A stretch of DNA of 45,900 nucleotides. Source: Bacteroidota bacterium. GTDB lineage: Bacteria > Bacteroidota > Bacteroidia > UKL13-3. The first letter of the stretch is position 1. The number at the start of each line of letters is the position of its first letter. Below, in pieces: positions 1 through 45,900 of this stretch. A program made the translations under genes and the position numbers. The notes under the pieces were generated by a model that did no database searches, was not told the origin of the DNA, and saw nothing but the letters and a program-made list of their open reading frames with translations. The stretch is from NCBI GenBank assembly GCA_031375995.1, contig JANMIV010000180.1:1-45900 (forward strand), read 5' to 3'.

Positions 1-2430
1 TCACCTTCATTGGTAGCAGGACAGCCAAGTACAGTTCCAGTAACGGTAACGAATATTGGTAACGCACCTACAACAGGTATAATTACGACGACAATTACTT
101 TACCAACAGGCACAAGTGCACCAGCAACTTTTACAAGCAACGGCAATACTTGTACAACAAGTGGTCAAACTGTAACGTGTACCAATCCTGGTCCTTTATC
201 TACTACAAGCCCTACAAATAGTACATTGATTAATGTACCTGTAACGGCTGCGCCAAGTATTGTGGGAACAAATCCTGGTCCATTTGCGGCAATGCCAAGC
301 ACACCAGGAGAAACAACTACGGCTAATAATCCAGCTGCACCAATGACACCAACTATGCCAGTTGTAGCAGCACCAGCACCTGATTTAGTAACAACAATTG
401 GACAACCTTCACCTTCATTGGTAGCAGGACAGCCAAGTACAGTTCCAGTAACGGTAACGAATATTGGTAACGCACCTACAACAGGTGTAATTACGACGAC
501 AATTACTTTACCAACAGGCACAAGTGCGCCAGCAGGCCCATTTGTAACCAATGGCAATACTTGTACAACAAGCGGTCAAACGGTAACTTGTACTAATCCT
601 GGTCCTTTGACAACTACTGCACCAAGCAACAGTACAGTAATGAATATACCTGTAACGGCTGCACCAAGCACCGTAGGAACTAACCCTGGACCATTTGCGG
701 CAACGCCAAGTACACCAGGCGAAACGACAACAGGTAATAATACTGCACCGCCAATGATACCAACAAACCCTGTTATCTCAGCAGCTGCACCAGATTTAGT
801 AACAACTATTGGAGCTGTTTCGCCTTCAATGGTAGTTGGTCAAATCAGTAATTTACCAGTGACGATAACTAATATTGGTACTGCGCCAACAACAGGTACA
901 GTTTCGACAACAATTACTTTACCAGCAGGAATTTCAACACAAACTTTGTTTGTAACAAACGGCTATACTTGTAGCACTTCTGGTCAAACAGTAACTTGTT
1001 TTTCAAATACACCATTGTCAAATGTAGCACCTAACAATGCTGCACTTTTACAAATACCAATTACACCAGCAGCAAGTATAGTAAATACGACACCCGTATT
1101 TAATGCAAATACATCAGGTGGTGGAGAACCAGCAGGAAATACAACAAACAATGCTGCTCCTCCAACAACATCAGGAACTGTATCGCCAGTCCCAGCACCA
1201 GATTTGGTAACGACAATTGGTCAGCCATTGACACCATTCGTAGCGGGTTCTCCAAGTAATGTACCAGTAACAATCAAAAATCAAGGGAATGCGCCTGACA
1301 ATGGCCCAATTACTTCTAATATTACGTTGCCAGCAGGATTTAGCACACCAGCTATTTTCTCGCCATCAGCAGGAACTACTTGTTCGACAACAGGTCAAAA
1401 TATAAGTTGTACAACAGCAGGCCCATTAAGTCAAACTGCACCAAACAATACAACTACATTTAATTTACCAATAACACCAGCTGCCAGTACAATTGGAACA
1501 ATGCCACAAACAACAGGCACAACAAGTTCTCCAAATGAACCAGCTGCAAATACAGGTAACAATCCTGCAACACCAATGTCGCCAACGACACCAGTTGCAG
1601 CTGCACCAGCACCAGATTTAGTAACATTTGTTGGACAGCCAGCGACACCATTCGTGGCAGGTTCTCCAAGTAATGTACCAGTAACGGTAATTAACCAAGG
1701 AACTGCACCAGCAAATGGCCCAGTAACAACAAGCATTACTTTACCAACAGGATTTAGTGCGCCAGCAATTTTTACGTCAAATGGAAATACTTGTACAACA
1801 ACGGGACAAATTGTTTCTTGCTCTAATCCAAGTCCATTGAGTAATATTGCGCCAGGTAATTCTATGACAATACAAGTACCTGTGACACCAGCAGCTTCTA
1901 CGGTAGGAACTACGCCGCAAACTAATGCGACTACTTCTGCACCAAACGAACCAGCTACAAGCACAGGTAATAATCCAGCTACACCAATGTCTCCAACGAC
2001 ACCAGTGGCAGCTGCACCAGCACCAGATTTAGTAACAACTATCGGACAACCATTGACACCATTCGTAGCAGGTTCTCCAAGTATCGTTCCTGTAACAGTA
2101 GCTAATATTGGTTCTGCACCAGCGAATGGTCCAATCAATACTACGATTACTTTGCCAGTAGGCACGAGCGCACCAGCGAGTTTCTCGCCAGTGGCAGGAA
2201 CAAGTTGTGCAACAACAGGTCAAACAGTATCTTGTACAACAACAGGTCTTTTGAGCCAAACTGCCCCAAATAACACAATTGTTATCAATGTACCAGTAAC
2301 GCCAGCAGCAAGTACAGTTGGAACTTCTCCATCTCCATTTACTGCAACACCAACAGCACCAAACGAAACAAATACATCTAATAATGCAGCTGCTCCAATG
2401 ACGCCAACAACGCCAGTTGCACCAGCGGCA
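1..2430 (+). repeat. Intragenic tandem repeat, period 408-414 nt, six units (first unit truncated by the window edge)
   Basis: The unit consensus is 'PDLVTTIGQP.P.(L/F)VAG.PS.VPVTV.N.G.AP..G.I.T.ITLP.G.SAPA.F...G.TC.T.GQ.V.C...GPL....P.N......PVT.AAS.VGT.P'. Units 1 and 2 are very similar at the DNA level (compare nt 1-340 with 401-740). Confidence 0.9.
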
Positions 2431-3225
2431 GTAGTTAATGTAAAATTGAGTGTAAAAGTATTTTTACAAGGGGCTTATGATGCAGCAACAGGTATGATGC
2501 GTGATGATTTACGTTCAAAAGGATTTTTACCAACAGCTCAACCATACTCAGCAATGGCTCGTACTTCTTATCATACAGGTACAGAAACAACAAGCGCAGC
2601 AGCATTGGCAGCAACAGGTTCAAATGCTATCGTAGATTGGGTATTGATAGAGTTACGCACAGGTGTTGGCGCAGCGACAAGAGTAGCTACTCGTGCCGCA
2701 CTCGTACAACGTGACGGCGATGTGGTTGATGTTGATGGTGTTTCGCCAGTGACATTCAATAATCGTGCAGCAGGAGCTTACTATGTTGTGGTTACACACC
2801 GCAATCACTTAGGAGTAATGAGTGAAGTTGCCGTAGCTTTGAGCGCAACACCAGCAACTTGCGATTTTACAGGTGCTTATGATGGTTATGGTTCTAACGC
2901 CATGAGAGCAATCGGTAATTTGAACGCTCTTTGGGCAGGTAATGCAAATCATACAGGAGTGACGCATAAATCATTGATTTTTAGTGGAGCAAGTAATGAC
3001 CCAGATGCGGTTAAAAATAATGTTTTGACTGCACCAGCTAACTCTTCTGCATTAGATTTCAGTTTTGTACCAATGGGTTATCATATCGGCGACACGAATT
3101 TAGATGGCGATGTAAAATACCAAGGTACAACGAATGATTTAGATGAAATGATTTTCTTCAACGTAATGACGCATCCAGCAAATGGTGCTCCATCACCGTT
3201 GCATTTGATTACTGAAAATCATTAA
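1..3225 (+). CDS. 3' portion of a giant secreted repeat protein (5' end outside the window): six ~137-aa DUF11/CARDB-like Ig-fold repeats, then a ~265-aa C-terminal beta-rich domain ending in dockerin/EF-hand-like loops
   Basis: The frame is open from nt 1. The track starts at an internal TTG at 10, but nt 1-9 encode SPS and continue the repeat 'SPSLVAGQPSTVPVTVTNIG'. Repeat boundaries 'PDLVT(T/F)(I/V)G' fall at nt 379, 790, 1198, 1612 and 2023. The C-terminal domain (nt 2431-3222) shares long motifs with the C-terminus of the 29219..44806 product. Stop codon at 3223-3225. Confidence 0.85.
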   Translation, partial: SPSLVAGQPSTVPVTVTNIGNAPTTGIITTTITLPTGTSAPATFTSNGNTCTTSGQTVTCTNPGPLSTTSPTNSTLINVPVTAAPSIVGTNPGPFAAMPSTPGETTTANNPAAPMTPTMPVVAAPAPDLVTTIGQPSPSLVAGQPSTVPVTVTNIGNAPTTGVITTTITLPTGTSAPAGPFVTNGNTCTTSGQTVTCTNPGPLTTTAPSNSTVMNIPVTAAPSTVGTNPGPFAATPSTPGETTTGNNTAPPMIPTNPVISAAAPDLVTTIGAVSPSMVVGQISNLPVTITNIGTAPTTGTVSTTITLPAGISTQTLFVTNGYTCSTSGQTVTCFSNTPLSNVAPNNAALLQIPITPAASIVNTTPVFNANTSGGGEPAGNTTNNAAPPTTSGTVSPVPAPDLVTTIGQPLTPFVAGSPSNVPVTIKNQGNAPDNGPITSNITLPAGFSTPAIFSPSAGTTCSTTGQNISCTTAGPLSQTAPNNTTTFNLPITPAASTIGTMPQTTGTTSSPNEPAANTGNNPATPMSPTTPVAAAPAPDLVTFVGQPATPFVAGSPSNVPVTVINQGTAPANGPVTTSITLPTGFSAPAIFTSNGNTCTTTGQIVSCSNPSPLSNIAPGNSMTIQVPVTPAASTVGTTPQTNATTSAPNEPATSTGNNPATPMSPTTPVAAAPAPDLVTTIGQPLTPFVAGSPSIVPVTVANIGSAPANGPINTTITLPVGTSAPASFSPVAGTSCATTGQTVSCTTTGLLSQTAPNNTIVINVPVTPAASTVGTSPSPFTATPTAPNETNTSNNAAAPMTPTTPVAPAAVVNVKLSVKVFLQGAYDAATGMMRDDLRSKGFLPTAQPYSAMARTSYHTGTETTSAAALAATGSNAIVDWVLIELRTGVGAATRVATRAALVQRDGDVVDVDGVSPVTFNNRAAGAYYVVVTHRNHLGVMSEVAVALSATPATCDFTGAYDGYGSNAMRAIGNLNALWAGNANHTGVTHKSLIFSGASNDPDAVKNNVLTAPANSSALDFSFVPMGYHIGDTNLDGDVKYQGTTNDLDEMIFFNVMTHPANGAPSPLHLITENH

Positions 3226-3310
3226 TTTTTTTTAAACTAAAAAAATTTAATGAATAAAATTATTTTTTTAATGGATATTCTTCTTAGCTAATTTAATAGT
3301 AAAAAGGTCA

Positions 3311-3345
3311 TTTTAAACTCCTTCCTAAAATGGAGGAGTTTAAAA
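3311..3345 (+). terminator. Strong AT-rich hairpin downstream of the 1..3225 gene; possible terminator or regulatory stem
   Basis: Arm 3311-3324 (ttttaaactccttc) pairs with 3332-3345 (ggaggagtttaaaa) over 14 bp including one G.T. The loop is 3325-3331. Only a short T stretch follows (tggctttt), so a terminator function is not certain. Confidence 0.35.
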
Positions 3346-3383
3346 TGGCTTTTAAGAAGAATATTTTATCAATATACATTAAA

Positions 3384-4220
3384 ATGAAAAAGAATATTTT
3401 TAAATCAATACTTATCGCAAGCGGACTTACTTTGAGCATGGCATCTGCTCATGCTCAAGTACAGTTCAAGGTGGAGCGCATGGGCGAAACCAACAATTTT
3501 ATGGTATATGCAGTTTCTTCTGAAACGTATGAAAATCCTAAAAACCTTATTTCCACAGCACAAGTAACGCTTGTTGCGCCTACACGTGATTTTCAGTTGG
3601 ATAAAATTGTAAATTTATATCCTGACGCAAAATGGCGTGTAAATGGTCGTACTGATGCACCAAAAGAAAATCCTAACCAAGATTATATTTATTTTGGTTT
3701 AGAAAATTTAGGTACAGGTGCGTTGAAATTTAAAAAAGGTACAGAAACACCTTTATTTTTAATTCAAGCTAAAACTTGCGAAAGCAATATCAGTTTGATG
3801 GATAACAAAAAAGATCCATTTATTTTTCCAAATTCTCGACAAATCAATGTAGGCAATCAGATTACTATTTTAGGTGCTGGTGGCGATGCGTTTAGAGGAA
3901 ATGTGAAAGACAAACAATCGGCAAATTGTTTGAAATCAAAAGTTGATTTAGATCCTTATGCTATTCGTATTTCACCGAATATCACGCAAGGTGGCTCTGT
4001 AAAAGTTGAATTTTTTAAAAATGATAAAGACAACGAAAAAGCAGAACTTATTATTTATGATGCTACGGGTCGTATGACAGTTTTGCAAAGTATTAGTGCA
4101 AAAAAAGGGTACAACAGTGTAGATGCAGATGTTTCGCAATTTCCAAATGGTACTTATTTCATGTCATTGAGAGGCTTACGAGAAGAGCCTTTGACTGCAA
4201 GATTGGTCATCTCAGAATAA
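3384..4220 (+). CDS. Small secreted protein: signal peptide, one copy of the shared ~160-aa N-module, and a T9SS type-A C-terminal sorting domain
   Basis: The track ORF is 3330..4220. I prefer ATG 3384 because MKKNIFKSILIASGLTLSMASAHA|QVQ is a canonical signal peptide, whereas ATG 3330 and 3345 lie in the hairpin 3311-3345. The module QVQFKVERMG...DYIYFGLENLG...PLFLIQ...DPFIFP...INVGNQITILG parallels the modules of 4642..22818. The last ~85 aa (ISPNITQGGSVKVEFF...IIYDATGRM...FPNGTYFMSL...ARLVISE) fit the Por_Secre_tail/TIGR04183 pattern. Confidence 0.8.
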   Translation: MKKNIFKSILIASGLTLSMASAHAQVQFKVERMGETNNFMVYAVSSETYENPKNLISTAQVTLVAPTRDFQLDKIVNLYPDAKWRVNGRTDAPKENPNQDYIYFGLENLGTGALKFKKGTETPLFLIQAKTCESNISLMDNKKDPFIFPNSRQINVGNQITILGAGGDAFRGNVKDKQSANCLKSKVDLDPYAIRISPNITQGGSVKVEFFKNDKDNEKAELIIYDATGRMTVLQSISAKKGYNSVDADVSQFPNGTYFMSLRGLREEPLTARLVISE

Positions 4221-4299
4221 ATCCAATATAGGGTTTAACAGCAGATGGTTTAGCCTTACCCAACTTTACGACTAGGGTAGGGAAGGGTAAGCTACTGTC

Positions 4300-4464
4300 T
4301 TAGGGACTACGTAACAAATAACTTAACAAGTCGGCTTGTTATCTTACGCCAATACTTCGTTAAAAATACTCGTCGATGCGCTGCGTCGCCTGCGTTTTTT
4401 GCCTCGTCTTAGCATAAAATAACTGCGCCTTGGTTGCTAACTTATTTATTACATAATCCCTTAA
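4300..4464. repeat. Long imperfect inverted repeat (hairpin) in the spacer upstream of the 6058-aa gene; candidate structured RNA (minus strand), MITE-like remnant or inverton
   Basis: Arm 4300-4330 pairs with 4433-4464 at 26 of 31 positions with one bulge. Inner segment 4338-4349 pairs with 4412-4423 at 10 of 12 positions. The 62-nt apical region 4350-4411 is locally GC-rich (tcgtcgatgcgctgcgtcgcctgcg). Confidence 0.5.
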
Positions 4465-4641
4465 TGCTGGAAAATCTTTTTTTATAGTAAGAGTTGTAGT
4501 AATCAATTAAAGTAAAGAATTAAACAAAACGCTTTTTTGGTGTGGGAGCTAAAAAAGTATTTTTAAAACTAAAAAAAAGTATGATTTATCGGGCTAAGAA
4601 AGCTCCATAAACCATTTGATTTATTTCAAAAAAATATAGAT

Positions 4642-7600
4642 ATGAAGAAGCTGTTACAATCTTTATGTTGGTGGTCACTTATGCTTATGCTGTCTTTTGC
4701 AGCAAACGCACAAGTCCAGTACAAAATACAATACAATACCTCATCGCAACGCTACGAGGTTTTTATGAAACCTTTGGTAAGTTACTCTGGTGCGCAAGCC
4801 TACACGGGTTCGGCACAGGTAACGCTTGTAGTTCCTACGGGTAATTTTACGCCTACGGGTCTGCAAAGTCAATTTGGAGCGTGGAACTTGGATAATGCAA
4901 TTGCTCGCCATCCAATCGAAAATCCAAATTTTGATTATATTTCCTTTTATATGCCTGCAACGGTAACAGGGATAAATTACGTCAATGGCGTAGAAATGCC
5001 TTTGTTCACTTTTACAAACTCGGGCTCTTGTATTGGTGGTATTAATTTAATAAATAATGCTACTGATCCATTTTTTCCTTCTCCAATAACGGGAACAAAT
5101 TCAAAAAATATCAATGTTGGTAATCAAATTTCTATTTTTGGTTATCAAAATAACTTGTTGGCAAATGCTTGGCAAAGTAACTACGGTGCAGCAGCTCCTT
5201 GTAGTACGTCGCCATCTTGCGCTATTCAATACCAAATCGTTAAAACAGGAGCTACGTATCAAGTAAATATGATACCAAATGTGACTTATACAACTGTTGG
5301 CAATATTACTGCTACACAGCAAGTTACGCTCAAAGTTCCTACTGGTTTGGTTTATACCAACCTTGTTTCTTTGACAAGTGGAGCAAACTATACACAAGGT
5401 TCTCGTATAAATGCGCCTTCGCAAGCGTTAGGAAGCGATTATATTTTGTTTAATTTGGGTAATTTAGGAACAAGTGCCTTGACTTATACCAATGGCACAA
5501 GTGTTCCTTTATTCAAATTTGATGTAGCAGGCAACTGCTCGGGCGATATTGCTTTTATGCCTAACAACGACCCTTTTACAAGTAATACTTCTTACAATTC
5601 TAAGCAGCAAATTACAGTATTTGGTTATGGGCAACCTGATGCTCCGATTTGTTTTTCGGGTTCAGGTTCAGTGCCTTGTACCAATGCACCGCCAGCGAGT
5701 TGCGGATTGGAATACGAAATTGAGCGTTTGTCGAATGGCAAATTTCAAGTTTCGATGACACCAAAAGTAACTTACACTGCGCCAAATAATACCACTTCTA
5801 CACAACAAATTACATTGAAAGTCCCAACAGGTTTTCAATACACAGGTTTGACAAGTATAAACGCTGGTGCAAATTATGTACAAGGTTCACGTATAAATGC
5901 ACCTTCACAAGCACCAGGTTTTGATTATATTTTGTTCAATTTGAGCAATTTGGGAACTACCGCCTTGACTTATACCAATGGCGTAAAAGTACCTTTGTTC
6001 ACTTTCGACAAATCAGGCGTTTGCAACAATGAGGTCATCGCTTTGATGCCAAACACAGACCCTTTTACAACAAATACTTCTTTTAATTCTAAACAACAAT
6101 GTACAGTGTTGGGCTACGGACAGCCTGATATTCCAATTTGTTTGAAAGGCACAGGTTCTGTAACTTGTACTCCGCCTGCGGCAAGTTGTGGTACAGAATA
6201 CGAAATTGAGCGTTTGCCAAACGGCAAATTTCAAGTTTCTATGACACCAAAAGTAACTTACACTGCGCCAAATAATACGACTTCTACGCAGCAAGTTACA
6301 TTGAAAGTCCCAACAGGTTTTCAATACACAGGTTTGACAAGTATAAATGCTGGTGCAAATTATGTACAAGGTTCACGTGTAAATGCACCTTCACAAGCAC
6401 CAGGTTTTGATTATATTTTATTCAATTTGAGCAATTTGGGAACTACCGCCTTGACTTACACCAATGGCGTAAAAGTACCGTTGTTCACTTTCGACAAATC
6501 AGGCGTTTTTAACAATGAGGTCATCGCTTTGATGCCCAATACAGACCCTTTTACAACAAATACTTCTTTTAATTCTAAGCAACAGCTTACTGTGTTAGGT
6601 TACGGACAGCCTGATATTCCAATTTGTTTGAAAGGCACAGGTTCTGTAACTTGTACTCCGCCTGCGGCAAATGCTTGCCAAATCAAGTACGAATTAGAAA
6701 CAGTTAATGGTTGTGCATACCAAGTCTCAATGACCCCTAACATTACGTGGACAACATCAGGAAATATCACAAAAGCGGCAAAAGTTACCCTTCGTGTTCC
6801 TCACGGTTGTTTTACGGTAGCAGACTTAACAAGCTTCAACTTTGGCGCTTCTTTTATAGTAGCAAATACTGCGCTTGCACCTTCTGACAATCCAGCCTAC
6901 GATTATATTTGTTTTACCATGACTACTGTTCCGACAGTTGGTATTCCATATATTCAAGGGCAAAAAGTACCGCTATTTACTTTTAAAAATGGTGGAACTT
7001 GTTGTGGTAATATTGAATTAATGCCAGCAACAGATCCTTTCGCAAACGGAAATACATTGAACCAAAATTTTGACCAACATTGGGAAACTTCAGGTACAGG
7101 CTCGGCAGGTGTTGAGCCTTGTATTATTGGAAATCCACAACCTTGTATTGCGCCTACTGGTTCAACTATTTTAGGTACAGATAAAACAATTTGTCAAGGT
7201 CAATCTACACAATTGAATGTAACAGGAACTTTTGTTGCTTACAATTGGTCAGGTGCAGGTTTGAGCGCAACAAATGTTTCAAATCCAACTGCGACACCAA
7301 CCGCTACTACGACTTATTACGTGACTGCAACAACCGCTTCGGGTTGTGCTATCAAAGATGATATTATCGTAACAGTAACTCCTTTACCAATTTTCACAAG
7401 CGTAACACCTTCTGCATCAACATCTTGTGTTTCAAGTAATGGTTCAATTACTATTGCAGCAAGTGGTACAGGAACACTCGAGTACAGTATTGACAATGGC
7501 ATATCTTGGCAATTGTCAAATGTATTTTTGGGTTTGAGCGCAGGTTCATATACTACAAAAATTCGCAGACAAGGTACGACTTGTGAAGTGGCAAATCCTT

Positions 7601-25997: not shown

Positions 25998-26049
25998 CGA
26001 AAGATTAAGAAAGTTAGGGAGTAAAAGTTTTTAGGAATAAAAGTAAGCA

Positions 26050-28572: not shown

Positions 28573-28604
28573 AAAATTCCCTTTGCGCTAACAAAAGGAA
28601 TTTT
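28573..28604. terminator. Bidirectional-looking intrinsic terminator hairpin
   Basis: The sequence is aaaattccctttg-cgctaa-caaaaggaatttt, with 8 perfect bp plus 4 of 5 more. An A run lies upstream and a T run downstream. It sits 13 nt beyond the stop of the minus-strand ORF 28617..28811. Confidence 0.45.
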
Positions 28605-28616
28605 ATATTTTAAAAA

Positions 28617-28811: not shown

Positions 28812-28831
28812 GAAAAAATAGACTTAAATTG

Positions 28832-29074: not shown

Positions 29075-29110
29075 ATATTAATACTCATAGCAAATTATAG
29101 TCATAATGTA

Positions 29111-29136
29111 TTGACTACTAAATACTTATACTTTTG
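29111..29136 (+). promoter_or_regulatory. Candidate promoter for the 5195-aa gene (Bacteroidota -7 box TAnnTTTG)
   Basis: TACTTTTG at 29129-29136 lies 83 nt upstream of ATG 29219. TTGACT is at 29111-29116, but the spacer is shorter than the usual ~19 nt. Confidence 0.3.
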
Positions 29137-29218
29137 ATTATTCATTATTAATTATTAACTACTTACCGCCTCCCATCTTCAATTAATACTAATTCTTACA
29201 AATCACAAATTTTTGTAA

Positions 29219-38200: not shown

Positions 38201-41200
38201 ACCTTGAAAAATGGCTTGAAATACGTTTCTTATACAGGTACGGATTGGACTTGTACAAAAACAGGTATTGATTTAAGTGGAAACGACGTAGTGGTTTGTA
38301 CTTCAAATATATCACTTGTGGCAAATACAGGTACATCAGGTGTTATTTTGACGGTTTTACCAACACAAGCAACCAATATCAGTAACATGACTTGGACAAG
38401 CGGTGGCGGTATGCCAGGTGGTCCTTACAAATCAGGTCCTACAACAAGTACAGCAGGTAGTGTTCAAAACCCAACAGACGGTGATCCGACAGGTGTGGGC
38501 AATAACCCTGGTGTATTGCCAGTAGTTCCAAAACCTATTTTGGTAACAACCAAAGTTGGTCCAGGTACGCCTATTACACAGTTCCAAGATTTTGATTACA
38601 TCTTTAATGTTACCAACAATGGTGCAGCAAATACAACAGGTGCAATTACAATTTTAGATACGCTACGCAACGGCTTAATCTACCAATCAACAGGTAGTGC
38701 AGGTTGGAGTTGTACAGTAACAGGTGCTGATGCCAATGGCAATCAAATCTTAGAATGTATCACTAGTAACGTTATCAATGCCAACGGAGATAATGATATT
38801 TTAAATCTAACAGTAAAAGCAACAAAAGCAGCGGCACTCTCTAATATAGCTTATGTTAACGGTGGCGGAATTCCAGGTGGTCCATATCCTACAAGTCCAG
38901 TTTCGACGACAGCAGGAAATGCACTTAACCCAACGCCTAACGCACTAGTGCCAACGCCTAATACAGCAAGTCCGATACCAAGTATCACGACTGTAAAAGC
39001 GGCATTGTCATCAACCATTGAGCAATTTATGCCTTTTGATTATAAATTTGATTTAGAAAACAAAGGTTCAGCAGCAACAAGTGGTTTATTGACAGTAAGA
39101 GATACGTTGAAAAGTGGTTTAAAATATATGTCTATGACAGCAGGTTCTCCTGATTGGACGTGTTCGTTGGTAGGTCAAGATTTAAGTGGAAACGACGTTG
39201 TTCAATGTCAAACTTCTACTCCGATTGCAGCATACAATCCACTCACTTTGACAGGCGGTACAAGCACTTATACTATTCGTGTAAAACCAACATTGTCAGG
39301 GAGTATCACTAATCTTGCTTGGGTAAATGGCGGCGGTATGCCAAACGGGCCTTACAAAACAGGTGGAACACCAGGAACAGCAGGAAGCCCTATCAATTCA
39401 GGTGGTGGCTCTCCAACTTCTCCAACAGTAGTAACACCAGTACCAATTTTAAAAACGGCTAAGGTAGCACCAAGTGTAGCAGTACAACAGTTTATTCCTT
39501 TTGCTTATACATTTAATGTCTTCAACGACGGTGCAGCAGCAACAGCAGGCGTAATTACGATAAAAGATACTTTGAAAAACGGTTTAGTATTCGTTTCAGG
39601 CGGTAGCGCATCATGGACTTGTGCCGTGACAGGTACTGACATTAGCGGAAACCAAATCGTAGAATGTACTTCTTCAACTGCTATTGTACCAACAGCAACA
39701 TCTTCTTTCCCGCTTAATGTAAAATCTACAACAGGTGGCACAACAAGTAATATTGCTTATGTAAATGGCGGCGGTATGCCAGGCGGTCCTTATAGAACAG
39801 CACCAACAACTATGGGTAGTGGAAATCCTACTAACCCAATGGGCGGAGGTTCAACTACAAACAACGTAACAGCAGTACCCAATCTGATAACCGTAAAAGA
39901 AGCGCCTGCAACAGCTATCACTCAGTTTGTTCCATTTGATTATACCATCAAAGTAACAAATTCGGGCGGCTCTAATTCGGGTGGTACAGTTACCGTAAGA
40001 GATACTTTAAAAACAGGTTTAAAATACAATGGTTTTGCAGGTACAGATTGGACTTGTGCAAAAACAGGTATTGATTTATACGGCAACGATGTTGTGGTTT
40101 GCACTTACTCAAACGCAATTGCAGTAAATCAAACTGTTTTTTACACATTGAATGTAAAACCTACTATGGCTACAAATATAACCAATATGACTTGGACAAA
40201 CGGTGGTGGTATGCCAGGCGGTCCTTACAAGTCAGGTTCTACACCAAGCACAGCAGGTAGCATCAATAACCCAACAGGTGGTGGTCCAACAGGCACAAGC
40301 CCGACCACATCAGTAGTACCAGTACCAGATTTACAAACGGCTAAAATAGTTGGCGCAGGTCCATTTAACCAAAACCAACCATTTACTTATAACTTCCAAA
40401 TCACGAATGCAGGTGGAGTTTCTACCTCAGGTTTAGTGACTATTTTAGATACCTTGAAAAACGGATTAAAATACGTTTCGGGTGGTAATACAGATTGGAC
40501 TTGTGTAAAAACAGGTGTTGATGCAGCAGGTAATGACATCGTAAGATGTACGAGTTTAGAGGTAATTGCAACAGGCAATACCACTTCGTTCCCATTACAA
40601 GTCAATCCAACACAAGCAAGTAATACTGCTAACTTGGCATGGACAAGCGGTGGCGGTATGCCAGGCGGTCCTTACAAATCAGGTACAACGGCAGCAACAG
40701 CGGCAGGACCTTCTAACCCAGGCGGCGGTACACCAACTGCACCAACGCCAGTAGGCCCAGGTTTGCCAGATGTGATTTTATTAATTTCACAACCAAGCCC
40801 AGTATTAACAGAAGGATTACAAAGTGTTGTTCAATTTACAGTTACCAACCAAGGAAATGGTGCAGCAACAGGACCAATCAATGTAAATATTACATTGCCT
40901 ACGGAATTGTCAGCTCCTCCAACTTTCACAAGTGGTGCTTGGACTTGTACAACAGCAGGTGTCAATATTTCGTGTTCTTCACAGAATACAGCAACTATCG
41001 CAATCAATACTTCTGTACAATTTGATGTACCAGTAGTACCAGCAGCAGGTTCTCTTGGTAAAATATTGAGTATATCGGGTGCTATTCCAGCAGTAACCAA
41101 TGAGAATATTGTCAATAACAATGGTGCAACAATGACGGCAAACAACCCTGTTCAAACAGGTACAAGACCAGATTTATTGACAGTTATTGGTACAATTCCT

Positions 41201-44200
41201 ACATTGACAGAAGGCACTACATCATTGATACCAGTTACCGTTTCTAATATTGGAAATGGTGCAGCAGCGGGTGTATTGACATTCTCTACGAACCTTCCAA
41301 ACGGATTGTCTGCACCAGCTACCTTCACTCAAAATGGTTGGACTTGTAACACTTCGGGTCAAACCGTAAGTTGTAGCAACCCTAATACAGCAGGAGTAGC
41401 ACCAAATGCAGCAGTTCCATTTGACATTCCAGTAACGCCAGCAGTTGGTTCAGCAGGAACGACACCAACCGTAACAGGTTTAGTAAATCAAGTTTTAAAT
41501 GAATTAGTAACTAATAACAATACAGGGGCTTCAACGGCAGCGCAATCAATACAACCAGCAAATCGTCCAGATGTGCAAACTGTTATTGGTCAGCCTTCAA
41601 CGCCTTTGGTAGAAGGTTCTCCTTCTAATATTCCTGTAATGTTGAATAACATAGGTACAGCACCAGCAACAGGCGCATTGACTTTCAGTACCAATTTGCC
41701 AAATGGCATTACCGCACCATTAACTTTTACAGAAAATGGTTGGACTTGTAATACTTCGGGTCAAACAGTAAGTTGTTCTAATCCTAATACAGCAGGACTT
41801 CCTGCAACAACAGGTACAACGAACTTCAATATTCCGATTACACCAAGTGTTGGTACAGCAGGTCAAACACCTACACTTACGGGTGCAGCATCGCCAGTAG
41901 TAAATGAAACGGCAACGACGAACAATACAACGTCAATGACACCAACAGGCGCAATTGCTCCATTGGCAAGACCAGATTTGACTACTACAATCGGACAACC
42001 AGCACCAGATTTGACAGAAGGCGTTACTTCTAATATTCCAGTAACACTTGCGAATATTGGTAATGCACCAGTAACAGGACCACTGACGTTCAGTATGTCT
42101 TTGCCAAATGGAATGACGACACCACCAACCTTTACAAACAACGGTTGGACGTGTTCTACTTCGGGTCAATCAGTGAATTGTACGAACCCTAATGCAGCAG
42201 GACTTCCTGCAACAACAGGTACAACAACATTTACTATTCCAGTTACACCAGCAGCAGGAACGGCAGGTCAAACACCTACACTGACAGGTAATTCAGCACC
42301 AGCACCGAACGAAACTTCGACAGCTAATAACAGTGGCTCAATGACACCTACAAATCCAGTAGTAGCAATGGCTCGTCCAGATATCTTAACGACAATCGGA
42401 CAACCAGCACCAGGATTTACAGAAGGTACAACATCGCTTGTTCCTGTAACTCTTGCAAATATTGGAAATGGTCTAGCGACGGGTCCTTTATCATTCAGCA
42501 CAACATTGCCGAATGGTTTGACTTCGCCTTTGACTTTTACCAATAATGGTTGGACTTGTTCTACTACGGGTCAAACAGTGAATTGTACAAATCCCAATAC
42601 AACAGGACTTCCTGCAACAACAGGTACGACAATGTTTGAAATACCTGTAACACCATTGGTTGGTTCGGCAGGTCAAACACCAAGTATTTCGGGTAATACA
42701 CCACCAGTAACGAATGAAACGACCACTACAAATAATAGTGGTTCAATGACACCAACAACACCAATTGTAGCAATGGCTCGTCCAGATGTACAAACAGTAA
42801 TCGGAGCAATACCAACTTTGACAGAAGGTACGACTTCTAATATTCCTGTGACGCTCAATAATATTGGAAATGCAGCAGCAACAGGGACATTGTCATTCAG
42901 TACAACATTGCCAAATGGTCTTTCAACAGCACCAACCTTTACAAACAACGGTTGGACTTGTTCTACTTCGGGTCAAACTGTAAATTGTTCTACGCCTAAT
43001 GCAGCAGGACTTCCTGCAACAACAGGTACAACAACGTTTAATTTACCAGTAACACCAGCAGCAGGATCAGCAGGTCAAACACCAACAGTATCAGGTACAG
43101 TAGCAGCAGCAATCAATGAAACGGTAACAACAAACAACACCGCTTCATCAACCGCAACAAGCGCAATTGTTGCCGCAGCAAGACCAGATATGACAACGAC
43201 AATTGGCACACCAAGCCCAGTATTGACAGAAGGCGTGCAATCAAACATTCCAATTACATTGGCTAATATCGGTAATGCACCAGCAACGGGACCATTGACC
43301 TTTACTTCAATGTTACCAAATGGCTTGACGACACCTTCAACCTTTACAAACAATGGTTGGACTTGTACGACTTCGGCACAGACAGTAAGTTGTTCTAATC
43401 CTAATACAGCAGGACTTCCTGCAACAACAGGTACAACAACGTTCAATTTACCAGTAACGCCAAGCGCAGGAACAGCAGGTCAAACACCTACGCTTTCAGG
43501 AACGTCGCCATCTGTACCAGGTGAAACAACAACAGGTAACAACGGAGGTTCTCTCACACTACCTGCCATTGTAGCGGCTGTAAAACCAGACTTAGCTTTA
43601 AGTTTCGGTTCGCCAAGCCCAGCATTAGCAGAAACAGTGCTTTCGAGTATTCCAGTTACTGTTGCAAACATTGGAACAGCAACGGCAACAGGTCAAGTGG
43701 TCGTAACCATCAGTATTCCAAACAACACAACAAGCCTTGCGTCTTACGTGACAAATGGTTGGACTTGTAATGCTTCGGGAACAACACTGACTTGTGCAAC
43801 ACCTAATTTTGCAGGAATTGCATCAGCAGCATCTACTACATTTGACATTAGGCTTACGCCAAATGCAGGTACAGCAGGGCAGTATGTATTGCTAAACGGT
43901 AACGTATCAACAGTTGCAGGCGAAACGAATACAGTTAATAATACCAATGTAACGATTGTTCCAACGCCAATTGCAGCACCGCCAGCTTACGCTTTAAATG
44001 TAAAAATGATGTTACAAGGTGCAATGTTAGGCACAACGGACGGTTTAATGCGTGATAATTTACGTACTCAAAACCTTATTCCATTGACTTCGCCTTATGA
44101 TGTTAGCTTACATACTCGCTTCACGAAAGTAGCAGAAAGTACAACTGCAACAACAATTGCGGCAGTATTGAGTGCAAACGCAGGTACAAGCGATGCTATC

Positions 44201-44806
44201 GTAGATTGGGTATTCATCGAATTACGTAATAGTGCTTCTCCTTCAACAGTAGTGAGAACTATTTCAGCACTCGTTCAACGTGATGGAGATGTAGTAGCAG
44301 CCGACGGACAACCATTGCTTATCAGTGGTATAAACGCAGGTAGTTATTTTGTAGCAATCAAACACCGCAACCACTTGGGCGCAATGACTGCATCAACAGT
44401 AGCATTAAGTACAGCGCAAACAGCAATCGTTGATTTTACAACGATGACCAATGCACAGGTATTCAATAATGCAGGTTATGACGGTTACGAGCGTGCAACG
44501 ATTGGTGCAGTAAAAGCACTTTGGGCAGGTAACTGCAACTCAGATACTCGTGCAAAGTACGACGGCGCAAGCACTGACCGACAAATGATTGCAACCAATG
44601 TTTTAGGTCATACAGTAAATACAAGCGGTTCTTATGTATTCAACAACGCTATTGGGTATTTCTCAGGCGACGTGAATATGGACGGAAAAGCGAAATACGA
44701 TGGTTCAGGTAATGATCGTATCTTAATCCAACAACTCATTCAGACATTTGGATTAAATGCCACATTATCAAATAATTACAATAATTTCTTAGAGCAACTT
44801 CCATAA
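29219..44806 (+). CDS. Giant (5195 aa) secreted multi-array repeat protein with LamG-like supermodules, CnaB-like repeats, two DUF11/CARDB-like arrays and a C-terminal dockerin-like domain; no recognisable T9SS CTD
   Basis: The N-terminus has three hydrophobic segments, the third resembling a signal peptide (AVLLTMVMAACLGNASKIYA|QA). The N-terminal domain 'CNGIWPE...GSNWYYVKVTTSGKMAFKVDG...DIDGAVWGPF...YLIYIDNFA' resembles the N-terminal module of many Bacteroidota giant surface proteins. The internal arrays are listed as separate repeat features. The C-terminal ~270 aa are homologous to the end of the 1..3225 product. Confidence 0.95.
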   Translation: MKNNYILNKITAIPKGMIALWSVAFLLLFSFVAIAKSYLNAGTTTDIADSFTLALFAGLLLLVIIPTIKHLSHLVSIRKAVLLTMVMAACLGNASKIYAQAVDAAQAVQICNGIWPEPSATATIGTNDLPSATSKGCLVTGEIGSNWYYVKVTTSGKMAFKVDGITSTGAMADIDGAVWGPFTSVAAGATAIRSVAGLAPARCNYSAGKGFTLTNSTTATSVGAGTLLFPTSRNVKSMDVLAGEYYLIYIDNFAAGTANGAVSISIDFTSENIAAYECPAMPTTCGPLCSSATCPVSDLGVKAAAGVQPSGTFTALQKANYTATPFKAGDGTFTQCYTLNSGAHGTLGIVQTILVRGTDANVDNIPDGLSAIASSRMATLTLASNACGTAIPPTTANGGNSGTLNPEWTGLTPNTNYVLCIATTMPAAGATVINYRQSALDVYHWAPPFSGLAPGCTSVAPTVWIKANQGISTATQGAQVTSWTNLGSVGGNVTGGTGSGTSSIANQTTSPTFDEKTFNFNPSVFANATSGMGMLNALPASPTKWVVYYVNKLGDITTWKSHVSFSAATTLSQTVGIGVAQENSLMSDNAAPYIWQGANAGVTNPISYTLDKPYITGWQWASAGTGVTNSINGRAGNTGAALSANNLRTFILTADPDGGPEDGGRSGGTYYAEAMVFPSTISAAEHQRVQSYLAIKYGITLDQTVATNYLSGDGSVVWNVTTNTGFNNNIIGIGKDDCQGLNQKQSKSANGGFQPVISTTGFAATNATNATDLTGSKSFEISGSDAGATSFGASYAFAGMTHRITRIWKIQETGTVGTVKVAIEKTEFSGNATNINLLRSLDATFDNSDTKIVMVSETIGGVEYYTATIDFTNGDYYTFGAYLTVPGCVAADLKTWYKANDFATSATSISQWNDAVNGFHAKQTVVANQPLYQAASAANNFNPTLKFDGTSDHLEYTASRFMSTTSSGSLFGSGTNELNAGYENFADLGIDNPHMGTLVNEQIMWMNGSAPVRIDHPTKLTANKVHQLGYYWNGGANAGSGLRLDGTDFYDATTDATLVGNGAPSDGQFSIGGYGAVENWTGNISELFLYGRNLTTQEKERVETYLAIKYGTTLAHDYLAGDNTKIWDKTANTAYHNNVFGIGRDDCQGLSQKQSNATNGGFQPIISTIGFAGTNATNTVVLDDKSFEMSGSDAAVASFGTAFVISGMNNRMTRVWKIQETGIAGTVKVAVAKSDFGGINHHLIRSTDASIATTDELLPMTVETIGGVEYLTATIDFANGDYYTFGAMLVGPGGVVNTDFWVKSDDAGTIGTAWKDHSKFGNAIEAVGAWSLSAADAAHNFNPYTTGFSTTKYFKDNNTSLTADDSYGVQTRTPFSVFSAVKPSSGSGSGRIIGIDNDALYAAEPGFSLSAGKPYFYKYWETVTSGTHTSVVTGGQNTVISYNATQNAVNDATMRIGKDGTYQNFNHVGHWHNLGDDLVLGYGTWDLNGAFPGDIMEAIWYKRTLTQNEQDRVNSYLAIKNGTTLAIDYLSSNSTIIWNKTANSAFHNNVFGIGRDDASALHQRQSKSTNATGKITLGVDDQIAATNIAHTGGVAVDANFLMVGDNGLAGVTTLVPGGACTPAGPDKGTNRIWKFVETGTVESVKVSTDLSPDFNGASTQVFMQVSTDAAFTGVIANIPARFNSTSGQFETNYDFTGTQYIRYIGVQTPPANACIGGSKDLNWLSFAPFNWWYWGTRSKSYNLGDGLNAQVSIDDSSNKILYGNTPAYNPPLTPNPTTGYYPVNYGNHLYIPRYDGNPTSTITTKIKLVDATNVAMPANGVSFKIKDIDGWWWGKDNVKVYGKLGGSIVNPKLSTNKLYTNVTITQPNQGKGSIYPWDWTVLGDMYVNFDSPVDEIYVEHTKDNLFSFKVFNDIAIGGLDIQCKAPEPEVVTPDNVYLFKEVSPKTARAGEAFTYKFTFKNFNCTDKVVSFTDALPSGMVWKDSTLATTMTIGSTSAYGGSANLNLTSLVVPTGTSYMYAEAVASTTGVQNNQASFTVNGNTYQSDEPSIAGAANATPVTIIAAPQVANLTLTKSVNKTSSPQNGTIEYTLSVKNNGAATVNAQVQDFLEGDATYTADPLVFTPASASTGTVVNTYATTGTLDVRDLAVAAGATITIKVKAKLGTNPVVNDTLSNNFTAKTGLGADAEFYSYKQFTSNKVKTLVQNLPSLAGTVFNDGGAGGGTPGNCTKDGTEGATGLPTGLYAKLIASGATVVAQAVAVNSGTYSFTAVNDGAYTVILDDNTTLSDITSTLPSGWAGTSSLTGNSASGLFTPTLTFCISNVPAQVTIVAGAGTVFNDNGAGGGTANNCTKDGTETAAGIPSGLFAKLIKAGTVLKVEPIDANGGFTMTAVSVGTGYSMIIDNNNSYTDAISNIPANWTANTWTGDVTATTPFTNPALKLCMYYSLPTFTVTAAANTVLHDDGAGGGTAGNCTLDGAESATGLPSPLFAKLIQSGAVVQAAAVASGGFTFSNIPDGSYTIILDNNNTLTDATTTLPSGWTGTTSWAGTLTSGVASPALKFCIYSPPPGPCFGTTSVVGAMPAGAYVTAGNVNAVSNSVDFGASATGILGTDRNPGSVGAYLFKAAAMPLNASNANFIDGYVRKTGGANVTFPVGDNGSYRPAIVNWAAACPSQMEVAYFGADPNIGVTSKLAAGGGGFFPTAPLGGPFPTNQRVTNLFSVSDKEYWDINGTDPAEITLTWNAASNISGLSTSNVNNLSIAGWNATTGKWERIASTIIAGSNLTSGSIKTDATLVPNTYNVYTFAGTIIPNIATVKTAPATISQFVPFNYSFTIKNNGTVATTANTIVRDTLKNGLKYISYSGAWTCAFLGTTASGDDVVECTIYATLAPSTSVLAGLRVNPTLGGAISNTSRTSGGGMTGGPYKSSTNESSAGTPQNPNAGAATTSNVTPIPNLVTTKVAPTTPVSQGTKFDYTITVNNTGSVATSGAITVRDTLKNGLKYVSYTGTDWTCTKTGIDLSGNDVVVCTSNISLVANTGTSGVILTVLPTQATNISNMTWTSGGGMPGGPYKSGPTTSTAGSVQNPTDGDPTGVGNNPGVLPVVPKPILVTTKVGPGTPITQFQDFDYIFNVTNNGAANTTGAITILDTLRNGLIYQSTGSAGWSCTVTGADANGNQILECITSNVINANGDNDILNLTVKATKAAALSNIAYVNGGGIPGGPYPTSPVSTTAGNALNPTPNALVPTPNTASPIPSITTVKAALSSTIEQFMPFDYKFDLENKGSAATSGLLTVRDTLKSGLKYMSMTAGSPDWTCSLVGQDLSGNDVVQCQTSTPIAAYNPLTLTGGTSTYTIRVKPTLSGSITNLAWVNGGGMPNGPYKTGGTPGTAGSPINSGGGSPTSPTVVTPVPILKTAKVAPSVAVQQFIPFAYTFNVFNDGAAATAGVITIKDTLKNGLVFVSGGSASWTCAVTGTDISGNQIVECTSSTAIVPTATSSFPLNVKSTTGGTTSNIAYVNGGGMPGGPYRTAPTTMGSGNPTNPMGGGSTTNNVTAVPNLITVKEAPATAITQFVPFDYTIKVTNSGGSNSGGTVTVRDTLKTGLKYNGFAGTDWTCAKTGIDLYGNDVVVCTYSNAIAVNQTVFYTLNVKPTMATNITNMTWTNGGGMPGGPYKSGSTPSTAGSINNPTGGGPTGTSPTTSVVPVPDLQTAKIVGAGPFNQNQPFTYNFQITNAGGVSTSGLVTILDTLKNGLKYVSGGNTDWTCVKTGVDAAGNDIVRCTSLEVIATGNTTSFPLQVNPTQASNTANLAWTSGGGMPGGPYKSGTTAATAAGPSNPGGGTPTAPTPVGPGLPDVILLISQPSPVLTEGLQSVVQFTVTNQGNGAATGPINVNITLPTELSAPPTFTSGAWTCTTAGVNISCSSQNTATIAINTSVQFDVPVVPAAGSLGKILSISGAIPAVTNENIVNNNGATMTANNPVQTGTRPDLLTVIGTIPTLTEGTTSLIPVTVSNIGNGAAAGVLTFSTNLPNGLSAPATFTQNGWTCNTSGQTVSCSNPNTAGVAPNAAVPFDIPVTPAVGSAGTTPTVTGLVNQVLNELVTNNNTGASTAAQSIQPANRPDVQTVIGQPSTPLVEGSPSNIPVMLNNIGTAPATGALTFSTNLPNGITAPLTFTENGWTCNTSGQTVSCSNPNTAGLPATTGTTNFNIPITPSVGTAGQTPTLTGAASPVVNETATTNNTTSMTPTGAIAPLARPDLTTTIGQPAPDLTEGVTSNIPVTLANIGNAPVTGPLTFSMSLPNGMTTPPTFTNNGWTCSTSGQSVNCTNPNAAGLPATTGTTTFTIPVTPAAGTAGQTPTLTGNSAPAPNETSTANNSGSMTPTNPVVAMARPDILTTIGQPAPGFTEGTTSLVPVTLANIGNGLATGPLSFSTTLPNGLTSPLTFTNNGWTCSTTGQTVNCTNPNTTGLPATTGTTMFEIPVTPLVGSAGQTPSISGNTPPVTNETTTTNNSGSMTPTTPIVAMARPDVQTVIGAIPTLTEGTTSNIPVTLNNIGNAAATGTLSFSTTLPNGLSTAPTFTNNGWTCSTSGQTVNCSTPNAAGLPATTGTTTFNLPVTPAAGSAGQTPTVSGTVAAAINETVTTNNTASSTATSAIVAAARPDMTTTIGTPSPVLTEGVQSNIPITLANIGNAPATGPLTFTSMLPNGLTTPSTFTNNGWTCTTSAQTVSCSNPNTAGLPATTGTTTFNLPVTPSAGTAGQTPTLSGTSPSVPGETTTGNNGGSLTLPAIVAAVKPDLALSFGSPSPALAETVLSSIPVTVANIGTATATGQVVVTISIPNNTTSLASYVTNGWTCNASGTTLTCATPNFAGIASAASTTFDIRLTPNAGTAGQYVLLNGNVSTVAGETNTVNNTNVTIVPTPIAAPPAYALNVKMMLQGAMLGTTDGLMRDNLRTQNLIPLTSPYDVSLHTRFTKVAESTTATTIAAVLSANAGTSDAIVDWVFIELRNSASPSTVVRTISALVQRDGDVVAADGQPLLISGINAGSYFVAIKHRNHLGAMTASTVALSTAQTAIVDFTTMTNAQVFNNAGYDGYERATIGAVKALWAGNCNSDTRAKYDGASTDRQMIATNVLGHTVNTSGSYVFNNAIGYFSGDVNMDGKAKYDGSGNDRILIQQLIQTFGLNATLSNNYNNFLEQLP
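30572..34360 (+). repeat. Three tandem ~410-aa supermodules (LamG/concanavalin-like jelly-roll candidate plus a following beta module)
   Basis: The recurrent landmarks are 'NFNP(S/T/Y)', '(E)(H/K/Q)(Q/E)RV(Q/E/N)(S/T)YLAIK(Y/N)G(I/T)TL' at nt 31293, 32531 and 33764, 'N(N)(I/V)(I/F)GIG(K/R)DD...L.Q(K/R)QSKS', 'R(I/M)(T)R(I/V)WKIQETG..GTVKVA' and 'GGVEY.TATIDF.NGDYYTFGA'. Module starts lie near 30572, 31865 and 33083. Confidence 0.7.
35849..36915 (+). repeat. Three ~122-aa tandem repeats, CnaB/SdrD-B-like candidates
   Basis: The unit is 'AGTVFND.GAGGGT..NCTKDGTE.A.G(L/I)P.GL(Y/F)AKLI..G.V.......GGFT........Y..I(L/I)D.N....D....(L/I)P..W.(G/A).......G.......P.L.(F/L)C(I/M)Y', with starts at 35849, 36215 and 36584. 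Confidence 0.7.
37652..40765 (+). repeat. Seven ~148-aa DUF11-like repeats (type A)
   Basis: Each unit is '(V/T)(K)(T/V)AP......QF.PF.Y.F.(I/V).N.G..AT.G.ITVRDTLKNGLKY(V/I)S......WTC...G.D..GN(D/Q)(V/I)V.CT......N....GGGMPGGPYK(S/T)G.....AG...NP.GG'. Unit openers are IATVKTAP, LVTTKVAP, LVTTKVGP, ITTVKAAL, ILKTAKVAP, LITVKEAP and DLQTAKIV. Confidence 0.8.
40766..43975 (+). repeat. Eight ~134-aa DUF11/CARDB-like repeats (type B), the same family as the repeats in 1..3225 and 44951..45900
   Basis: The unit is 'PD(L/V/I/M).T.IG.P.P.LTEG..S.IPVT..NIGN..A.G.L.FS..LPNG(L/M).(A/T)P.TFT.NGWTC.TSGQTV.C.NPN.AGLPATTGTT.F.(I/L)PVTP..G(T/S)AGQTPT(L/V).G......NE...(T/N)NN'. Openers are PDVILLIS, PDLLTVIG, PDVQTVIG, PDLTTTIG, PDILTTIG, PDVQTVIG, PDMTTTIG and PDLALSFG. 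Confidence 0.85.
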
Positions 44807-44836
44807 AGTTGTTGTGCAATAGTTTAACTATTTTTT

Positions 44837-44905: not shown

Positions 44906-44950
44906 AAATGAATGAAAAAAAGAATTTTATAATCATTAACATTTTTAATA

Positions 44951-45900
44951 ATGAAAAAAATAACTCTACATCAATTAATACTTTGGGTAATGTTATTATT
45001 TATGGGAAATTCATTGTTTGCACAACAGCAAGTTGATTTTACTCTAAAATATAATACAACCACAAGTGAATATGAAGTATATGGAAAACCAACTCAAAGT
45101 GGTTCGTTTTCCGTTGGCGGTGGTTCTCAATTAACCATAATGACCCCTGCATCTTATGTAGATGCACCTATTACTGTGACCAGCGTAGCAGGCGGGCCTT
45201 GGGCAGATAATACGCAAATGTACAATCCAATTCCTTCATTAGGAGTTGATTTTCATAGTATTACGACCAATGGTACATTTCCAATTTTCAATTTTACGGC
45301 AAATCAAGAACAACTGATTTACAAATTTACCTTAACGGGTGGTTGTGTTGCAGGTGTTCGTTTGTACCGAAATGCTGACGAAGGCACAACACCACGTGAT
45401 CCAGACAGTAACGTAGCAGGTATGGCAGGTAATGACTTTGAAAATTACTTTGCGCCAGTTTCTACGGGCAATCAAGAGTATCGTGCCAATTACAACAACA
45501 CGGGTATTTTATGCGCTCCACCAGCAGCAGCAGATTTGATTACGAGTATTGGACAACCTTCGCCTTCTTTGGTAGCAGGACAGCCAAGTACAGTTCCAGT
45601 AACGGTAACGAATATTGGTACTGCACCTACAACAGGTGTAATCACAACGACAATCACATTGCCAACAGGCACAAGTGCACCAGCGGGTCCTTTTGTTACA
45701 AACGGTAACACTTGTACAACAAGCGGTCAAACTGTAACTTGTACTAATCCAGGACCTTTATCAACGACAAGTCCTACAAATAGTACATTGATTAATATAC
45801 CAGTAACGGCTGCACCAAGCACCGTTGGTACAAATCCTGGACCATTTGCGGCAATGCCAAGCACACCAGGAGAAACAACTACGGCTAATAATCCAGCTGC
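44951..45900 (+). CDS. 5' portion of a giant secreted repeat protein (runs off the right edge): signal peptide, divergent copy of the N-module, and first DUF11/CARDB-like repeat
   Basis: This ORF is not in the track because it has no stop in the window. I translated it by hand from ATG 44951 to nt 45900 and found no stop. It starts MKKITLHQLILWVMLLFMGNSLFA|QQQVDFTLKYNTTTSEYEVYGKP... From nt 45531 it reads 'ADLITSIGQPSPSLVAGQPSTVPVTVTNIGTAPTTGVITTTITLPTGTSAPAGPFVTNGNTCTTSGQTVTCTNPGPL', the same repeat family as nt 1-2430. The upstream in-frame ATG at 44912 hits a stop after 6 codons. Confidence 0.85.
   Translation, partial: MKKITLHQLILWVMLLFMGNSLFAQQQVDFTLKYNTTTSEYEVYGKPTQSGSFSVGGGSQLTIMTPASYVDAPITVTSVAGGPWADNTQMYNPIPSLGVDFHSITTNGTFPIFNFTANQEQLIYKFTLTGGCVAGVRLYRNADEGTTPRDPDSNVAGMAGNDFENYFAPVSTGNQEYRANYNNTGILCAPPAAADLITSIGQPSPSLVAGQPSTVPVTVTNIGTAPTTGVITTTITLPTGTSAPAGPFVTNGNTCTTSGQTVTCTNPGPLSTTSPTNSTLINIPVTAAPSTVGTNPGPFAAMPSTPGETTTANNPA

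Follow-up and report, generated by a model that had tools for sequence, protein, structure and literature searches.

A stretch of 45,900 nt from a Bacteroidota bacterium (JANMIV010000180.1, positions 1-45,900, forward strand; referred to below as the window) was analysed with respect to its replication and partition genes and to the very large surface proteins that it encodes. We consider it likely that an uncultured member of the Saprospiraceae with low G+C content (GC) carries a circular, low-copy plasmid of at least 46 kb, that the window represents this plasmid essentially in full, that the assembly broke inside one tandem-repeat gene, and that the cargo consists of surface-protein genes almost throughout. 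Nine genes, or ten open reading frames (ORFs), were found, and the five surface-protein ORFs A, B, C, I and J, all on the plus strand, add up to 38,831 nt or 84.6% of the window. This recount agrees with an earlier, sequence-only reading of the same DNA, in which about 85% (about 38.8 kb) had been assigned to such ORFs, and with its statement that two of the proteins exceed 5000 aa, namely C (6058 aa) and I (5195 aa). The same reading had counted five surface ORFs; five are indeed present, and they most likely correspond to four genes, A and J being the two halves of one.

Probable continuity of the window ends

The window opens with ORF A (1-3225, plus strand, 1074 aa), which was read as the 3' fragment of a first giant gene, and closes with ORF J (44951-45900, plus strand, 316 aa), which leaves the window end and was read as the 5' fragment of the same gene. 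The final 341 nt of the window share 88.6% identity with its initial 338 nt, and both stretches belong to one repeat array. On the protein level the repeat of J is 87-93% identical to the first two repeats of A and 48-56% identical to the later ones, a pattern that is expected from an assembly break inside a young tandem array of one gene. As read from the sequence, J and A can be joined in frame only if 79 nt and an integral number of repeats lie between them. The idea that the contig had already been circularised was rejected, as no exact terminal overlap exists and the direct join of end to start runs into a stop after five codons.

A related scaffold covers the region in question. In L102 (ENA ERZ28573614), which shows 63-75% nucleotide identity to the window, the end of an I-like giant is followed by a J-like start and by repeats; beyond a gap of 100 N, an A-like end leads to a B-like gene and then to a C-like giant. 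Taken together with the order in the window itself, which runs from A to J, this order of I, J/A, B and C closes a circular map. On these sequence comparisons A and J would most likely be two halves of one gene, and it is highly likely that the plasmid is circular.

Alternatively, the window could be part of a larger plasmid or chromid, the remainder of which would hold ordinary cargo, and the dominance of giant genes would then be an assembly artefact. The unclosed window ends fit such a view, as do more distant members of the Rep family, whose contigs measure 98-200 kb and carry a mixed metabolic cargo. However, both ends fall into the repeat array of a single gene, L102 spans them with only a scaffold gap in between, the closest relatives have the same gene neighbours, and two related contigs of 31-46 kb likewise consist of giant genes to at least 60%. 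We therefore regard a larger replicon as improbable and retain the reading of the window as an essentially whole circular plasmid.

Replication, partition and relatives of the backbone

The gene rep (24591-25997, minus strand) encodes a 468-aa initiator of the Rep_3 family, in which Rep3_N (WH1, 6.7e-28) and Rep3_C (WH2, 1.6e-18) were both matched above their gathering scores. Upstream of it, the origin region (26075-26547) harbors nine copies of the iteron TCCYAAATTRGTTGC, all of which are confined to this interval, with 0.03 copies expected by chance. The iteron core measures 15 nt. Five copies are arranged in tandem at 22-bp spacing (26136-26238), single copies are found at 26364 and 26533, and an inverted pair (26075-26089 on the minus and 26098-26112 on the plus strand) lies 78-115 nt upstream of the rep start, a position that would fit an operator for autorepression of rep. 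The origin region is AT-rich (GC about 29% in the sliding window over it). GC skew tracks repeat composition and is uninformative on the origin. A 26-nt direct repeat, TAAnTnACTGATTATCAATnTnTTAC, is present at 26250-26275 and 26483-26508 on either side of the single iteron at 26364, and positions 26257-26357 share 76% identity with non-coding DNA located about 570 nt upstream of the rep gene of the Aureispira anguillae plasmid pAUEa; this repeat region may be an extra origin element.

Between origin and parA the 8-bp repeat TAATTAYRTAATTA occurs 15 times, every copy within 26680-26940, compared to 0.17 expected copies. These overlapping TAATTAYR repeats form three clusters, and the resulting centromere-like array abuts the parA start codon. 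ParA (26940-27590, plus strand, 216 aa) is a small Walker-type partition ATPase without an N-terminal helix-turn-helix, and it passes the AAA_31 and CbiA thresholds. It is followed by H (27626-28024, plus strand, 132 aa), the ParA partner and putative centromere-binding protein, which is kept beside ParA in seven relatives and whose C-terminal 45 aa are conserved with a strand-helix-helix pattern. A 54-nt tandem duplication (27727-27831) was observed within H, in a lysine-rich linker whose length differs across relatives, while both ends of the protein are conserved. A small Walker ParA together with an upstream repeat centromere corresponds to the type Ib partition layout.

The set of Rep, iterons, ParA and centromere is complete. 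The sequence-only reading had described a complete maintenance set including a ribbon-helix-helix (RHH) partner, and all parts are present, with the RHH fold of the partner unconfirmed. From what is known of these families, Rep would bind the 22-bp iterons and start theta replication and would probably repress its own promoter via the inverted iteron pair, and ParA and H would segregate the plasmid copies through the 8-bp repeat array upstream of parA.

Next to rep lies gene E (23697-24545, minus strand, 282 aa), which encodes a Bro-N/DinD-like DNA-binding protein; it matches phrog_15286 over its full length (4.6e-95), and its C-terminal half is DinD-like. A Bro-N or KilA-N gene was found beside rep or within about 4 kb of it in most relatives examined (none in the relative L089), so that E looks like a backbone gene. 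A reading of the window as a phage or phage-plasmid was rejected, as structural and lysis genes are absent and E gave the sole strong match to a phage family.

When Rep and ParA were compared with plasmid databases, as the earlier reading had proposed, the nearest annotated relatives turned out to be complete circular plasmids of Bacteroidota (41-44%). In PLSDB, Rep is closest to the circular plasmid pHALHY03 of Haliscomenobacter hydrossis (44% over 98% of its length), and ParA to plasmids of Runella slithyformis and Spirosoma and to pHALHY03 (41-44%). A genome scan with Rep, using one genome per GTDB species, yielded 437 stretches encoding a Rep relative. Among the best 80 of these 437, all loci belong to Saprospiraceae, Saprospirales, Lewinellaceae, Lewinella, Neolewinella, Flavilitoribacter or unclassified Bacteroidota, with the exception of one that is labeled 'uncultured bacterium', and the best GTDB relative among the matches listed shows 51% identity. 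Since the listed Rep relatives fall there, the host would be an unsampled or uncultured low-GC lineage of the Saprospiraceae; the GC of the window (about 39%) fits a low-GC member of this family.

Closer copies were detected in metagenomic collections. L001, a Logan contig of SRR20217215, is 100% identical to the window over 11.5 kb, and L083 is colinear with the window over 12 kb at 85% identity. Copies from Logan, ENA and JGI with 100%, 97% and 88% Rep identity show the same order of giant, oxygenase, Bro-N gene, Rep, ParA, H and giant, and at least five samples yielded this layout on contigs of their own. Two to four contigs of the Rep family were observed within several single metagenome-assembled genomes (for instance JADKBS01, CAZQTE01, JANNMS01 and JAYTMW01), which suggests that several related plasmids may coexist in one Saprospiraceae host.

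Ratios of non-synonymous to synonymous substitution (dN/dS) were 0.11 for C (2739 codons, compared with its orthologue in L083), 0.175 for the N-terminus of I and 0.18 for the C-terminal domain of A. The corresponding values were 0.08 for Rep, 0.07 for the oxygenase D and 0.02 for ParA. Because the ratios of the giants (0.11-0.18) show purifying selection, these genes are not pseudogenes. The earlier reading had noted that pseudogenised giants in related strains would speak against its interpretation, and purifying selection was found instead. A C orthologue in L088 that seemed to be pseudogenised was rejected as such, the break being a scaffold gap of 100 N.

These data also bear on the view that rep and par are a relic integrated in a chromosome, and that the giants are ordinary chromosomal adhesin genes. 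Saprospiraceae chromosomes do hold many giant type IX secretion system (T9SS) substrates, such as GhpA and SprB in Aureispira (10.1101/2024.01.29.577165). On the other hand, Rep, ParA and H are intact, with strong purifying selection on the backbone (dN/dS 0.02-0.08), the iteron and centromere arrays are intact as well, 45.9 kb pass without chromosomal genes, tRNAs or an integrase, and the layout is met again and again on separate contigs. An integrated relic is thus most improbable, and the separate plasmid remains the preferred interpretation.

No transposase, integrase, relaxase or resistance domains were found in the tested ORFs outside the giants or in six larger antisense ORFs inside them. 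These six antisense ORFs and the small ORFs of the spacer gave no family match, and tRNA and Rfam scans of the window found nothing. The sequence-only reading had listed no conjugation, mobilisation, resistance, metabolic, transposase or integrase genes; this statement holds for transposase, integrase, relaxase and resistance domains, and is to be qualified by the oxygenase D, an enzyme-type cargo gene that does not encode a surface protein.

Surface proteins and a possible slot downstream of par

Gene C (4642-22818, plus strand) encodes the SprB-like giant of 6058 aa. A signal peptide is followed by five N-modules, about 43 SprB-type repeats, DUF11 and SdrD_B domains, and a type B C-terminal domain (CTD). 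The SprB repeats (PF13573) were matched at 6.9e-54 and 1.8e-19 and have a period of about 82 aa, and the CTD (about 22561-22809) was matched by CHU_C (9.9e-28) and TIGR04131 (2.8e-19). B (3330-4220, plus strand, 296 aa) is a small protein with a type A CTD at about 3996-4175, preceded by one copy of the N-module. Its scores exceed the cut-offs by modest margins (Por_Secre_tail 30.5 bits, cut-off 27; TIGR04183 25.9, cut-off 23). The true start of B is likely the internal MKKNIF at 3384, and no exact match to the protein is on record. With B (type A) and C (type B), the two CTD-bearing proteins named in the earlier reading were both recovered.

The N-module, an all-beta unit of about 160 aa, is found once in B (3456-3900), five times in the N-terminus of C (4711-7146) and once in J (45020-45475). 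It has no Pfam match, and the AlphaFold model of B with its N-module is of low confidence (predicted local distance difference test, pLDDT, 54.6).

Directly downstream of C no PorP/SprF homologue is present, again as had been read from the sequence; the next gene encodes the 2OG-Fe(II) oxygenase D. For this reason C is predicted to be an orphan type B substrate. In Flavobacterium johnsoniae, three of the 12 type B substrates count as orphans and use the same unlinked shuttle (PMC12618676), so that a downstream porP/sprF gene is common among type B substrates and not universal. Past the end of C lies a terminator-like hairpin with a 13-bp stem and a T-run (22862-22891, plus strand). D itself (22971-23585, plus strand, 204 aa) matches 2OG-FeII_Oxy_3 (1.5e-20) and the phage auxiliary-gene family phrog_61, lacks a signal peptide and is cytoplasmic, and is the sole gene of the window that belongs neither to the surface proteins nor to the backbone. 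Its position right behind the SprB-like giant is kept in L001, L083 and L084, and it is possibly linked to the giant, for example as a modification enzyme.

The remaining two cargo proteins, I (29219-44806, plus strand, 5195 aa) and J/A, resemble each other. J opens with a Sec signal peptide, to which are added an N-terminal beta module (about 150 aa, with 31% identity to the N-terminus of C) and the first of the CARDB-like repeats. A continues with about seven CARDB-like repeats of about 132-137 aa (CARDB match 1.1e-10; 411-nt tandem period) and ends in a 271-aa C-terminal domain (2410-3225). Over about 1090 aa, A and I are 40% identical; both have CARDB-like repeats (about 135 aa each) and the 271-aa domain (43970-44806 in I). 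About 990 homologues of this domain were found in Saprospiraceae, Flavobacteriales, Runella and also in the gammaproteobacterium Thiothrix; it belongs to no Pfam family, can be described as a beta-sandwich with a putative dockerin-like part, and has a confident AlphaFold model (pLDDT 93.5). Domain scans detected neither a type A nor a type B CTD in I and J/A.

According to the mechanism that we propose, B and C would be exported by a T9SS encoded on the chromosome, B via PorV, and the orphan C would need a compatible PorP/SprF-type shuttle that is likewise chromosomal. For I and J/A, the C-terminal domain that they have in common would probably bring them to the surface or attach them there.

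I is separated from H by an AT-rich spacer of 1.2 kb (28025-29218). This spacer was observed to contain an 81-aa ORF (28829-29074) without a family match and two long hairpins (28573-28604 and 28752-28794); in the relatives L085 and L095 a small gene was called at the place equivalent to this ORF. I then begins with a 95-aa leader (29219-29503) containing three hydrophobic segments, the third of which resembles a normal signal peptide ending in AQA. An exhaustive search of cluster representatives covering 1.84 billion proteins matched the leader to just three of them, and a word-index protein search with the leader gave no match. The leader was also found in L085 (6545-6829), and the same leader pattern in L089 (6302-6586) and L095 (5497-5802), in each case on a giant directly after par; the leader-bearing giants of L089 and L095 have about 6000 aa. 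In L085, the backbone is 91.6% identical to the window (Rep 97%) and the leader is 97% identical, and past residue 95 another protein, one with beta-helix-like repeats, takes the place of the passenger. As a nearly identical leader precedes a different passenger, this suggests a conserved slot after par in which the passenger is swappable in a cassette-like manner.

From this we derive a wider proposal, which is tentative and which we hold to be rather unlikely as a whole. Small Saprospiraceae plasmids would act as exchangeable 'surface-identity cassettes', in which the backbone is coupled to the slot of leader and giant after par, the passenger is swapped by recombination, and the SprB-like orphan is carried together with further giants. 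Traits of filamentous predators, namely adhesion, the range of gliding substrates or prey capture, would then be traded horizontally as a unit, with two of the giants being exported via a C-terminal anchoring domain other than a T9SS CTD.

It was also considered whether the giants of the same plasmid serve mainly in the capture of prey or partners, in filament aggregation or as a shield against phages or grazers, with the grappling hook GhpA of Aureispira as the parallel rather than SprB. GhpA is a T9SS giant of 5898 aa with which ixotrophic predators catch prey, and it is encoded together with ghpB (PorP) and ghpC (PorE) at a chromosomal locus (10.1101/2024.01.29.577165). Such predators are found in Saprospiria, the host class of the plasmid, and GhpA resembles the giants described here in being a very large surface protein with Ig-like repeats. 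In addition, SprB repeats occur in only one of the four cargo proteins, and the passenger after par is swapped between near-identical backbones, as would be the case under diversifying pressure. However, GhpA shows no detectable sequence similarity to residues 1-5000 of C or 201-5195 of I. When these segments were searched against the PDB, the former gave only an SdrD B-domain match and the latter nothing, so that they resemble no solved chain (GhpA included, if deposited). Partners of the ghpB (PorP) or ghpC (PorE) type are absent from the window, and C carries the signature of SprB repeats with a type B CTD. We think a main role in capture, aggregation or shielding rather unlikely.

A further alternative is that the giants serve the plasmid itself, mediating cell contact or exclusion that favours its spread without conjugation genes of its own. 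The rare, conserved leader on a giant directly after par in four backbones (Rep 53-100%) and the lack of detected mobilisation genes would agree with this. The argument is purely circumstantial, though, as other backbone relatives have no giant and no transfer machinery of any kind was found, and we judge it decidedly improbable. The reading that we favour remains that of a low-copy plasmid that would add its surface proteins to the host surface.

Several observations weigh against this reading and are given here together. The two ends of the window do not overlap exactly, and their direct end-to-start join is out of frame. The window is absent from the GTDB species representatives, the JGI metagenome contigs and IMG/VR, and the assignment of the host therefore rests on homologues only. 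Near the iterons, within 25998-26940, no DnaA box (TTWTNCACA) was found. ParA scores 169.7 bits on the NCBI ParA_partition model, just below the curated equivalog cut-off of 180 bits, and H has no Pfam, PHROG or PDB match that would confirm an RHH fold. Two of the four cargo proteins carry no recognised secretion or anchoring signal beyond the Sec leader, and the sole structural neighbours of the 271-aa domain are weak matches to type II X-module-dockerin structures (Foldseek E about 0.02).

Comparison with known systems and biological meaning

The sequence-only reading had called a replicon given over to adhesin-like giants unusual. The dominance of giants in the cargo is real and conserved, but related Saprospiraceae plasmids often carry giants as well. 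Within the closer Rep clade, the relative with 56% Rep identity (L095) is a contig of 30.8 kb of which a giant of 6397 aa occupies about 62%, and the relative with 53% (L089) is a contig of 45.7 kb with a giant of 5979 aa and one of at least 3102 aa, which together make up at least 60% of it. A contig of 18.8 kb (Rep 68%) holds one SprB/CHU_C protein of 1827 aa in a mixed cargo, and one of 98 kb (Rep 58%) a protein with a type A CTD and at least 1542 aa, again in a mixed cargo, while a contig of 28 kb (Rep 58%) has no giant. Among the 80 distant genome loci (80 of 437), 19 have an ORF of at least 1000 aa within 10 kb of Rep, the longest being 2148 aa. Plasmid-borne giants are thus a habit of the lineage, and the window is its extreme case. 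No literature describing Saprospiraceae plasmids with giant adhesins was found, nor any of relevance to the sample accessions.

Every part of the plasmid belongs to known families, with a Rep_3/ParA backbone and T9SS substrates of types A and B; what is new is the composition and the leader slot. The plasmid pHALHY03 (92 kb, circular) shares the WH1/WH2 Rep (44%), ParA with a small downstream partner, a KilA-N/Bro-N gene downstream of rep and the absence of conjugation genes. It differs in its ordinary metabolic, regulatory and insertion sequence (IS) cargo, its largest nearby gene encoding less than 1000 aa, whereas four surface genes make up 85% of the window, which has no IS. Aureispira anguillae pAUEa (122 kb, circular), a Runella plasmid and the Emticicia plasmid pEMTOL03, all of them complete plasmids of isolates, are rated non-mobilizable and encode surface proteins of 1800-4100 aa (Ig-like or SprB-like) as well as T9SS substrates. 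In these plasmids, however, the giants are a minor part of the cargo beside O-antigen, regulatory and metabolic genes, and the Rep of pAUEa is only 32% identical to that of the window. C (6058 aa) resembles an SprB-type adhesin (6497 aa) in its giant size, its SprB repeats and the type B CTD found at its extreme C-terminus, but is plasmid-borne and carries five uncharacterised N-modules as well as DUF11 and SdrD_B domains. The window differs from the GhpA locus in the lack of PorP and PorE genes, as described above.

In functional terms, the plasmid would add a set of adhesins or filaments to the surface of its host as one unit, and this set could alter adhesion, the range of substrates for gliding, or contact with other cells or prey. 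A gliding or adhesion phenotype might accordingly be gained or lost with the plasmid, as far as can be inferred from its gene content. Three uncharacterised modules emerge from the analysis, the 271-aa C-terminal domain, the N-module of about 160 aa and the rare three-segment leader. For metagenomics it follows that plasmids of this kind break at their repeats and are easily missed or mis-binned. The requirement of the orphan type B giant for a compatible chromosomal PorP/SprF shuttle would constrain the host range. Filamentous bacteria of activated sludge, of aquatic habitats and of samples associated with animals are among the Saprospiraceae. Gliding adhesins and giant filaments of Bacteroidota are usually treated as chromosomal, and a small plasmid carrying them would let adhesion, gliding range and prey contact change in a single step.

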